NCBI RefSeq assembly: GCF_003018235.1
Contig: NZ_CP027437.1
Length of the DNA stretch: 64,000 nt
Source: Escherichia coli
GTDB lineage: Bacteria > Pseudomonadota > Gammaproteobacteria > Enterobacterales > Enterobacteriaceae
Strand: one strand, 5' to 3'
The stretch's first letter is position 1, and each line of letters opens with the position of its first letter. Below are positions 57,501 through 60,500 of this stretch, one piece after another. The position numbers were made by a program.

Positions 57501-60500
57501 ACGATAATCGTCGGTGAGAGGAATTGCAGCACCGTTGCCGTGGCAGCATTCGATTTTTCAATGGTTAGCAAAAAAGTGAGCTGTACGGTTAGCGCGCCAA
57601 CCACGGAAAAAATCAGCAGACTAATGGCATCTTTGTGATTGTTAATAATAGAAAAGATTTTATCGCCATGAACAAATGACAGCGTCAGCAGAATCAAACC
57701 GGCGAATATCAAACGCGTCATAGTCAAAAACTGCGACGACATCTGGCTTTGCTCCATGATGTATTGCGCGCAGACCCCTGAACTTCCCCACAACACGGCG
57801 GCAATCAGAACGTTCAGCATCCCCTTTCTGGTGGAACCCATTTTTCCCTCTGCATACTGTTTTGTCGTTTATGTATGCAGGCATGATAGCAAAAATGGCG
57901 AGGATGGCTCTGTTTGCGCCACGCCGATTTTTCTTAGCCCAGACAGGTGAGCTAAATATCTTTAATAAACAGCAGGCAAATCATCGCAATACCCAACATC
58001 CCTATCGCCAGCCAGAACAACGCGTGGTAGCTCCAGATTTCAACCATAATTCCGTCAACAGAGCCGGCGATAATCCAGCCGACGCGTGAAGTATTTGCAT
58101 ATAACGTTGTCGCAGAGCCTATTTTTTCAGGCATCAGGTCCTGAAAATAAAGCATGCCGATACCACAGAGAATACCAAGGAAGATGGCATTTAGAATTTG
58201 CAATTCCAGCTCAACTGCCGGAGTCGTCGCCATGAGTACGCTGGCGTAAAAACACATTCCACTCACGATAGCAATGAGCATTAATAGCCGCTTGCCAATA
58301 CGTTTCATGTAATAGCCTGCGATTAACATCATCGGAATTTCCAGACCGGCAGCAATACCAATCATTTCTCCAGCCAGTTTATCGGTTAGATGCAGTTCAT
58401 CAATAATAAATAGCGGCATATTTATCATGTAGAGATTATTCGCCGCCCACATCATTGAACAGACCACAAAAAGTAGCCGCGTATCCCGCTTCCTGTGGGT
58501 GGAGGGTAAAATTTCTATGGGTTGGGTAACGACAGGAATATTTCTTTGTATTGATGGCAAAAACAACCAGACTATCAGTCCGCAAACAACAAATGCGATG
58601 GCAGCGGTGAGATACATCACTTTAAAACTAAATCCCATTGCCAGCTCATAAGCGAGCGGTGGCCCGATAACCCAGGCAAGCGAGATCTGAGCACGTAAAA
58701 ATGTACTGAACATTACCGTCTCACGGCCTGTTCTGTCGGCGTGTTCACGGGCGAGGGCGAACATTTGCGGGTTTGCGGTGGAAGCAAAACTACTCAGAAG
58801 TACGCCCGTTGAGAGCAGAATGAAGTAGTTGCGATTCCACGCAAAAAGCGTGCAGGCCAGCACTCCAAATAAGCAACATAGCAGGATCAGTAATTTACGG
58901 TCGCCTTGTTTATCGGAGTGCCTTGCCAGAAATTGACTGACCAGAATTCCCATAATAGCGCTACCGGTGAAGAAAAAACCTACCATTATAGGACGGGCTT
59001 TCAGTTCATCTGCGAGGAATATACTTAGGGTAGGAGTCTGGAGAGCGCCCGCAATACCAGTCAGAAAGGCGACAAGTAAAAATGCCGCGGCGGTGAGATC
59101 AAGTATTTTTGATGGAGTGGTAGCCGTTTTTTGCATTCTTCTGAATCACCGGGCGACAAAATATAACTGAGTTACAAATAAGTACCAGTCGAATGAGTAT
59201 TGTATTAAGAATTTTTGAGTATCGCTGATACAACCAGAAAACAATGCTAGCGCAATATTATAGGGCCAGCAATTGAGATTATTAGCAAAAGCATGTTGAG
59301 AATTAATCACCGAATTTATATATTAATTATAGTAAGACAATGAGCTTTTTTTGATAGTAAAAATAAAACAAGTTGATTTGATATATTAAATGAACAAATT
59401 AATCTTGATGGCAGTCTGATTATTGGTGAAGTTTATAGGTCAGTTTTTTTTGCCAGCGGTTAAAGGAATAGAATAGTCGTATAAAAAAGGGTGTTCTGGA
59501 GCGTGTAAAACAACATCTGCACCTTAATGGCGATACAGTTGGCTGAGAGTCAGCAGGGGGCAAATCACCTGCAATTAAACACGGCGCATGCTGGTGCGAA
59601 TATCGCGGATGCGTTCGAGGACAGAAGAACCGACAGGCGGATTCTTCAGTCGCTCATCGTCCATCATAAAACCTTTGATCAGGTATTCCTGAAGCCGATT
59701 GAATATTGAGCAGTAGAAAATATCTGGATTGACAGTATTACAAGGGGTTGGAGAATGTCAGAAGAGGCATTTTGGCGGAAGATCACAGGAGTCGAACCTG
59801 CCCGGGACCGCTGGCGGCCCCAACTGGATTTGAAGTCCAGCCGCCTCACCGGAGACGACGATCTTCCGCGCCTCGATTGCTACATGGAGGCGGGGCGCAT
59901 TATAGCTACTTCCTTGAGTTTCTACATCCCCCAGATCAGTTTTTTCCGCCTAATACACGCAGCGTATTATCACGAAAGCATTATAATTCATATAAAACCC
60001 ATATTTTACAATGATATATGAGCGGAATTAACGCTACCACGATCACATAAAACAAGAATCATAAATTAATAACCAGATATCGGAATATTCGCTCTCACAG
60101 GGATGGTTTACAAAATGCGTTATCGGTCTCAGCACCCCTATAGCATCAAGGAAAAGCAGATGAAGAGTGAAGTGTTGTCCGTTAAAGAGAAAATTGGTTA
60201 TGGCATGGGAGACGCCGCCAGCCACATTATTTTCGATAACGTAATGTTATATATGATGTTCTTTTATACCGATATTTTTGGCATACCTGCCGGATTTGTC
60301 GGAACCATGTTTTTGGTCGCTCGTGCACTGGATGCGATTTCCGATCCTTGCATGGGGTTGTTGGCCGATCGAACGCGCTCTCGCTGGGGTAAATTTCGTC
60401 CGTGGGTACTGTTTGGCGCACTGCCATTTGGGATCGTCTGTGTACTGGCCTATAGCACGCCAGATCTCAGTATGAACGGAAAAATGATTTATGCAGCAAT

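Follow-up and report, generated by a model that had tools for sequence, protein, structure and literature searches.

The stretch of Escherichia coli DNA considered here (64,000 nucleotides of contig NZ_CP027437.1, assembly GCF_003018235.1; hereafter the window) carries selC, the gene for the selenocysteine tRNA (tRNA-Sec), and, about 4 kb away from it, an 18.0-kb segment of virulence-type genes, the eip/air island. The selC gene occupies 95 nt on the minus strand (59773-59867), with the anticodon UCA and an encoded CCA end, and it is the sole tRNA gene that ARAGORN detects in the window (anticodon tca). In addition, the Rfam model RF01852 matches it over the full length of the model (positions 1-91 of 91) with 83.8 bits, against a gathering score of 47. 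All 95 of 95 nt agree with selC of K-12 MG1655 and with that of LF82, and the identity to the functional K-12 gene predicts a functional tRNA-Sec gene. On one side lies yicJ (60160-61542, plus strand), encoding a glycoside-pentoside-hexuronide transporter, and on the other setC (57952-59136, minus strand), encoding a sugar efflux transporter of 394 aa; both are assigned from the open reading frame (ORF) list and the annotation of PCN033 and K-12, which for setC is colinear. Beyond setC follow two backbone genes, yicL (56918-57841, minus strand; ORF list and PCN033 annotation) and nlpA (56096-56914, plus strand; ORF list, PCN033 and K-12 annotation), the latter intact here. A first-pass annotation of the window had described selC as complete between setC and yicJ, and this is borne out by ARAGORN, Rfam and colinearity with K-12. 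Its gene end (59867) and strand were right, its start (59772) was one base off, and the interval that it singled out, 59137-60160, corresponds to the setC-yicJ intergenic region, from the setC start codon (59134-59136, minus strand) to the yicJ ATG at 60160.

From 55595 to 63893 the window aligns with K-12 as a single colinear 8.3-kb high-scoring segment pair at 96.5% identity. Moreover, the setC-selC spacer measures 636 bp in both, with two compensating 1-nt indels, and neither the alignment nor the spacer length leaves any extra DNA between selC and setC relative to K-12; by the K-12 standard, therefore, selC is intact and unoccupied. The selC-yicT-setC region of MG1655 has the same selC, the same spacer length and the same relic of a rhuM gene (see below), and differs from the window by about 4% nucleotide divergence. 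A promoter and terminator scan of the intergenic region gave counts at shuffle level.

The attachment site for selC-specific elements (attB) consists of the last 24 nt of selC and 22 nt downstream (59750-59796, minus strand), as defined by the breakpoint in occupied genomes, whose match splits at window position 59796 and at 59750 or 59772 (query positions 660 and 614 or 636). In enteroaggregative E. coli (EAEC) 042, selC is followed by an 11-kb P4-like element that ends in the 21-nt repeat GACTCCTGTGATCTTCCGCCA, after which the sequence is of the window type. Since the 042 sequence beyond this repeat continues as in the window, the window represents the precise empty attB. Besides its integrase and a primase, the 042 element, known as "selC-A", encodes an AAA ATPase together with DUF4435, psu, ogr/delta and an icd-like protein. 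Both selC-A and the selC island of CFT073 use this attachment site, and the window keeps in one piece the exact sequence that 042 has divided into attL and attR. Unlike 042, and unlike CFT073 and O157 with their islands, the window has nothing integrated there: it shows no 21-nt repeat, no integrase and no additional DNA relative to K-12. As a side observation, selC-A (24864-35754 in the 042 sequence compared, L013) is a P4-like satellite in which the pair of AAA ATPase and DUF4435 genes stands directly after the integrase, a position that in such satellites often holds anti-phage cargo. The selC gene is also the integration site of the LEE, SHI-2, PAI-I536 and SPI-3 islands.

The description of selC as unoccupied, given by the first-pass annotation, thus holds by comparison with K-12 and in that no element is inserted; what it had missed is that the spacer holds the remnant of an older gene. 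An internal piece of rhuM, 129 bp long, is situated 78 nt downstream of selC (59566-59694, minus strand); it is recognised by tblastn, by the NCBI Prokaryotic Genome Annotation Pipeline (PGAP) and through K-12 annotation, in which the pseudogene yicT (b4653) matches it in position. Specifically, the fragment corresponds to residues 121-171 of the 346-aa RhuM of LF82 (75% identity, E = 3e-17 by tblastn), of which it keeps 43 codons, with an 8-aa deletion and an in-frame stop. A full-length ORF of the RhuM family (PF13310, about 345 aa) is not present at this position, so the relic is a pseudogene; PGAP labels it in PCN033 and 042 as an incomplete RhuM family protein. The non-coding spacer between setC and the relic (59137-59565) is of K-12 type, being about 96% identical to and colinear with K-12, and it has no homology to the corresponding spacers of Escherichia albertii or LF82.

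Complete counterparts of this islet exist in other Escherichia. LF82, a B2 strain that does not carry setC, has a full-length rhuM with selC on one side and, on the other, a degenerate repeat of the tRNA gene's 3' end (88% over 34 nt). In E. albertii, selC is followed by a truncated integrase gene (258 aa), DUF4942, rhuM (345 aa) and setC. In both, rhuM stands directly downstream of selC in the same orientation as in the window, where 43 codons remain of the 345-346 aa; its companions differ, for in E. albertii it is accompanied by part of an integrase gene and by DUF4942, in LF82 by the degenerate repeat. A rhuM gene is also found in Salmonella SPI-3. On these grounds the K-12-type "empty" selC site is best read as the scar of an older selC-linked islet.

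The eip/air island (37553-55594), or "selC-B", was delimited by comparison with K-12, O157:H7 and 042. Its placement between nepI and yicS at about 4 kb from selC, already proposed from the first reading of the sequence, proved correct: the right edge, 55594, is 4,178 bp from the selC 3' end. In particular, two convergent genes, nepI (36296-37528, plus strand; ORF list and K-12 alignment) and yicS (55593-55886, minus strand; NCBIfam YicS_fam, 129.9 bits), face each other across the island, which takes up the interval from one stop codon to the other; this interval is 48 bp long in K-12 and about 18 kb long in the window. K-12 homology can be followed as far as the nepI stop codon (37526-37528) and sets in again at 55595, within the yicS stop codon (55593-55595), which forms the right junction. 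In island-free O157:H7, however, the 27 nt that follow nepI are those of the window, so that the left edge is better set at 37552/37553; measured against O157:H7 the island replaces 23 nt, whereas against K-12 the non-homologous stretch starts at 37526.

Two features of the island flanks deserve mention in their own right. The segment 37526-37552 occurs as two unalignable alleles, TAACGTATTTACAGGAGGGTTATTGCT in the window, O157:H7 and 042, and AAATCCTGATATCAGGTAAAGAAGCGT in K-12 and in strains with B2-type flanks; this 27-nt difference alters the C-terminus of NepI, with KMK versus KMKKS before the stop, and is independent of the presence of the island. On the other side, 55595-56100 (yicS and the yicS-nlpA spacer) is 65-93% identical to K-12 in 100-nt bins, a divergence far above the normal within-species level that fades within about 600 bp, and yicS across genomes falls into discrete identity classes of about 97.5, 94, 93 and 84%.

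The largest gene of the island is air/eaeX/iatC (37730-48280, plus strand; 3,516 codons), encoding an inverse-autotransporter adhesin (NCBIfam Ve_IatC_Nterm, 2562 bits) with 17 tandem 291-nt Big repeats at 41168-46123. All other genes lie on the minus strand: eilA, for a HilA-family regulator (48332-50029; NF009037, 953.8 bits with a cut-off of 589) 99% identical to E. coli EilA; eipD, for a SipD/IpaD-like needle-tip protein (50232-51578; PGAP, and TIGR02553 at E = 3.5e-39, below the curated cut-off); eipC, which has no NCBIfam match and is assigned from the literature and its SipC position in the operon (51622-52752); eipB, for a SipB/SctE-like translocon subunit (52765-54546; NF011901 at E = 1.2e-30, below cut-off; SctE according to PGAP); and eicA, for a chaperone of the SicA/LcrH class (LcrH/SycD; 54794-55291; TIGR02552, 113.3 bits with a cut-off of 104.8). 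By profile matches, with eipB and eipD below cut-off, the cargo thus consists of translocators for type III secretion along with one chaperone, one HilA-like regulator and one adhesin. Its GC content falls to 35-42% from eilA to eicA and rises to 60-63% in the repeats of air, the flanks being at about 46-53%; patchy distribution, deviant composition and virulence-type genes together make the segment a genomic island in the broad sense. The air frame contains a TAA at 45014-45016 (codon 2429 of 3,516) and then continues unchanged to 48280; either the gene is truly a pseudogene, or the repeat array may contain an error of sequencing or assembly. In PCN033 air is split in two.

The search for traces of site-specific integration was negative at every point. 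With up to three mismatches allowed, the selC 3'-end 26-mer finds in the whole 64 kb the gene itself alone (0 expected by chance), and for a 51-nt attB probe (blastn-short) the longest other match in the window is 12 nt. Likewise, tblastn with the selC integrases of CFT073 and 042 and with the truncated E. albertii integrase gave best E-values of 0.36-3.5 in the window, and with DUF4942 and two insertion sequence (IS) fragments nothing better than E = 0.36 anywhere in it. As for terminal repeats of the island, the repeat search retrieved solely the Big-domain repeats inside air, and the best direct repeat between the two edges scored 17 by Smith-Waterman, with a shuffle mean of 18. Non-coding gaps within the island are each at most 301 nt long according to the ORF list, which leaves no room for a decayed integrase, and the ARAGORN scan of the window finds no tRNA or tmRNA gene abutting the island. 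One candidate, a 21-nt imperfect inverted match between the edges, was marginal, being reached by 3 of 200 shuffles, and was not deemed meaningful.

The claim that neither an integrase gene nor a duplicated tRNA 3' end lies near selC can consequently be extended to the entire window. The first-pass annotation had further named, as evidence that would speak against its view, a second selC 3' end or the remains of an integrase gene at a boundary of the nepI-yicS island, and had proposed direct repeats at the island ends as a check; neither of the former was found there, and no direct repeat rose above shuffle level. Since the evidence so named concerned the boundaries of that island, the rhuM relic does not belong to it. 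Acquisition of the island independently of site-specific integration at selC is supported by all the checks that the first-pass annotation had put forward, the K-12 alignment among them. The alternative that had been offered alongside, namely an old event at selC with subsequent loss of integrase and attachment sites, is unlikely and has indirect support, which is weighed below.

By gene content, order and junctions the island can be identified as the eip locus, or "selC-B", known from published work on EAEC 042 and sequence type 69 (ST69), which is associated with the second type III secretion system of E. coli (ETT2). The locus of 042 has the same genes in the same order (eicA, eipB, eipC, eipD, eilA, air/eaeX), an identical right junction, a left junction that is near-identical over the 70 nt compared, and likewise setC, yicL and nlpA between island and selC; overall DNA identity to 042 is about 91-94%, and air of the window has three fewer 291-nt repeats than that of 042 (10,551 versus 11,421 nt), which is intact and encodes 3,806 aa. 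The eip locus of EAEC 042 was reportedly treated by Ren et al. in 2004. As described by Fox et al. (2020, PMC7058095), who follow Sheikh et al. (2006), the site has two regions: the phage-related selC-A, which extends from selC to a 21-bp repeat of the tRNA gene's 3' end, and selC-B, with the eip genes, eicA, eilA and eaeX. Three backbone genes, setC, yicL and nlpA, stand between them. The same paper finds selC-A "largely absent" from ST69 blood isolates and summarises, for 042, the EilA-dependent expression and the role in adherence and biofilm reported by Sheikh et al. (2006). The 042 genome paper describes eip as "inserted next to" selC (PMC2808357), and IatC has been characterised (PMC6714894). 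With selC-B present and selC-A absent, as in PMC7058095, the arrangement of the window has already been described; it is known and common. New here are the explicit comparison with the attB of 042, the joint population count, the position shared with E. albertii and the reading of rhuM/yicT as a scar.

The frequency of this arrangement was assessed in 5,426 complete E. coli genomes, of which 5,424 hold a match to the selC interval. An empty selC, defined as a setC-selC-yicJ interval covered in one piece, occurs in 2,471 of the 5,424 (45.6%). The left island junction is present in 739 and the right one in 727 of the 5,426 genomes; this puts the share of complete genomes with the island at about 13.5%, or about 730. 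Island and uninterrupted selC together, scored as coverage of window positions 51000-62500 by at least 80% in one place, are found in 429 genomes. Without correction for phylogeny, selC is accordingly empty in about 59% of island-bearing genomes (429 of about 730) and in about 43% of island-free ones. Occupancy of selC and presence of the island look largely uncoupled across E. coli, and the difference between 59% and 43% is most likely a matter of phylogenetic structure. The genes setC, yicL, nlpA and yicS are present in nearly all 5,400 genomes, with or without the island.

A comparison with E. albertii bears on the age of the island. There the order is selC, the truncated integrase, DUF4942, rhuM, setC, yicL, yicS, eicA, eipB, eipC, eipD, eilA, air and yicN, with nepI and nlpA absent, and the island adjoins yicS at the same junction as in the window, which indicates that it is old. 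The island DNA of the two is 69-77% identical, compared with 88.6% for the adeD-yicN left flank. At the amino-acid level, EilA (76%), EicA (73%) and the Air N-terminus (82%) stand apart from EipD (52%), EipB (28%) and EipC (28%), a pattern that points to an old element with fast-evolving or replaced translocators. The translocators (5406-9822 of the E. albertii sequence L010, versus 50232-54546 of the window) diverge far more than their neighbours EilA, EicA and Air, which suggests cassette replacement or strong diversifying selection. A third translocator allele, with EipB at 84%, occurs on a 10.7-kb contig (L009, JAIJJM010000039.1) binned as a Collinsella metagenome-assembled genome; being 89-95% identical to the yicS-eip-air region, this contig is evidently mis-binned, E. 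coli-like Escherichia DNA.

The reading favoured here, to which we give a probability of roughly 0.8, is that the locus combines two independent layers, a free selC attachment site and an old eip/air segment that did not enter by site-specific integration at selC. In the first layer, the 3' end of selC would be a free attachment site of the K-12 type, into which no P4-type integrase element has inserted, and the rhuM relic in the adjoining spacer would be the residue of an older islet whose survivors are seen in E. albertii and in B2 E. coli. In the second, the island, with no integrase, tRNA fragment or terminal repeats and lodged between the 3' ends of nepI and yicS, is most likely an old accessory segment of Escherichia. 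It would have spread by vertical inheritance or by homologous recombination in the flanking core genes between lineages, while most lineages would have lost it or never gained it. The anatomy of the locus, the missing integration signatures, the population counts and the position shared with E. albertii are direct observations, and from them we infer the mode of spread and the direction of gain and loss.

Several observations weigh against this reading. All island-free haplotypes sampled (K-12, two with B2-type flanks, and O157:H7) share at the empty site a 23-nt segment, TGGTCAGTGGTTGTTGCCGTTCT, with two differences in K-12; neither island-bearing haplotypes nor the island itself nor E. albertii contain anything that corresponds to it. 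Furthermore, O157:H7 combines this segment with window-type flanks on both sides at 98-100% identity. Such a pattern is better matched by an insertion within E. coli accompanied by replacement than by a simple deletion, and it is at odds with purely vertical inheritance from a common ancestor with E. albertii. In addition, setC, yicL and yicS are only 74-82% identical to E. albertii in nucleotide sequence, compared with 88.6% for the left flank, so that the "backbone" between selC and the island may itself be unusual. Finally, the search of genome contigs with EipB yielded one additional locus, the E. coli-like contig binned as Collinsella, which says nothing about other species, so that sampling beyond E. 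coli and E. albertii is poor. The 48-bp intergenic region of K-12 was also considered as the scar of an island deletion; it has no counterpart inside the island or in E. albertii.

Two other explanations were weighed, each of which we hold to be unlikely. On one of them, rhuM, setC, yicL, nlpA, yicS and eip/air all entered through selC as a single ancient composite island whose distal attachment site and integrase then decayed past recognition, which would make the eip island a true selC island. The rhuM relic beside selC, the truncated integrase, DUF4942 and rhuM found there in E. albertii, the higher divergence of setC, yicL and yicS relative to the left flank, the variable gene content between selC and yicN (LF82 having no setC, E. 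albertii neither nlpA nor nepI) and the wording "inserted next to selC" used for the eip locus (PMC2808357) are all consistent with such an origin. On the other hand, no copy of the selC 3' end is detectable in the 64 kb, the degenerate repeat of LF82 directly follows rhuM, from which it follows that the rhuM islet ends before setC and yicL, and the four genes from setC to yicS are carried by nearly all E. coli whether or not the island is there. The fuller proposal, that the whole stretch from selC to nepI is an eroded composite island that brought rhuM, setC and eventually eip/air into the ancestor of Escherichia, appears a shade less probable still. If it were true, the textbook naive attB of E. 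coli would be a scar, and setC, yicL, nlpA and yicS would be island cargo.

The other explanation, which we regard as no more probable than the single composite entry, places the event recently within E. coli: an integrase-independent insertion, IS-mediated or illegitimate, into an O157-like nepI-yicS target with replacement of 23 nt, followed by spread through flank recombination, the E. albertii copy being the product of inter-species exchange. It accounts for O157:H7, with its window-type flanks and the 23-nt segment common to all empty sites and missing from island haplotypes, and it finds a parallel in a paralogous module that sits at a different chromosomal site with IS fragments at its flanks. 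In the window, however, neither IS fragments nor inverted repeats nor a target duplication occur at the edges of the island, and the copy in E. albertii has diverged strongly, with EilA at 76%, EipB at 28% and the island DNA at 69-77%, as expected from long separate histories rather than from recent exchange.

Beyond annotation, these results are of little importance. The genome has an ST69-like arrangement, in which the eip/air locus is present and the P4-like selC-A absent, and, since the island is not integrated at selC, the label "selC island" given to the eip locus is a map reference only. The selC attachment site stays free for incoming P4-like satellites or pathogenicity islands, and the rhuM relic illustrates that reference "empty" tRNA sites can bear scars of earlier elements.

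The paralogous module mentioned above (L016 and L017, 1-12156), found in genomes that bear the label E. coli, has yjiK-yjiR-like genes as neighbours. It encodes an inverse autotransporter, a chaperone, an SseC-like protein, a protein in the SipC position, a SipD-like protein and an EilA-like regulator (57%), and is bracketed by IS fragments (rve, HTH_Tnp_1); its location elsewhere in the chromosome indicates that such cassettes can relocate without a tRNA. In Escherichia fergusonii (L014 and L015, 10001-16961) an EilA-like regulator of 51% identity stands beside iagB-like and prgHIJK-orgA genes, and an SPI-1-like type III secretion cluster in this arrangement appears to be the source of the eip/eilA fragment.

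Elsewhere in the window, the interval from yicN to nepI holds an insertion of 840 bp that K-12 lacks (35410-36249). Its two minus-strand ORFs (35450-35773 and 35757-36116) form a toxin-antitoxin-like module, made up of a 119-aa ORF, which the annotations of 042 and O157 call a RelE/ParE family toxin, and a helix-turn-helix protein of 107 aa with weak matches of the MqsA/NadS type; the module is also present in 042, O157:H7 TR01 and SA186. Two Rfam matches mark ordinary K-12 backbone, namely the istR small RNA of the tisB/istR locus (20569-20698, 148 bits) and a ROSE_2 thermoregulator (5680-5752, 100 bits), the latter presumably at its expected place upstream of ibpA.

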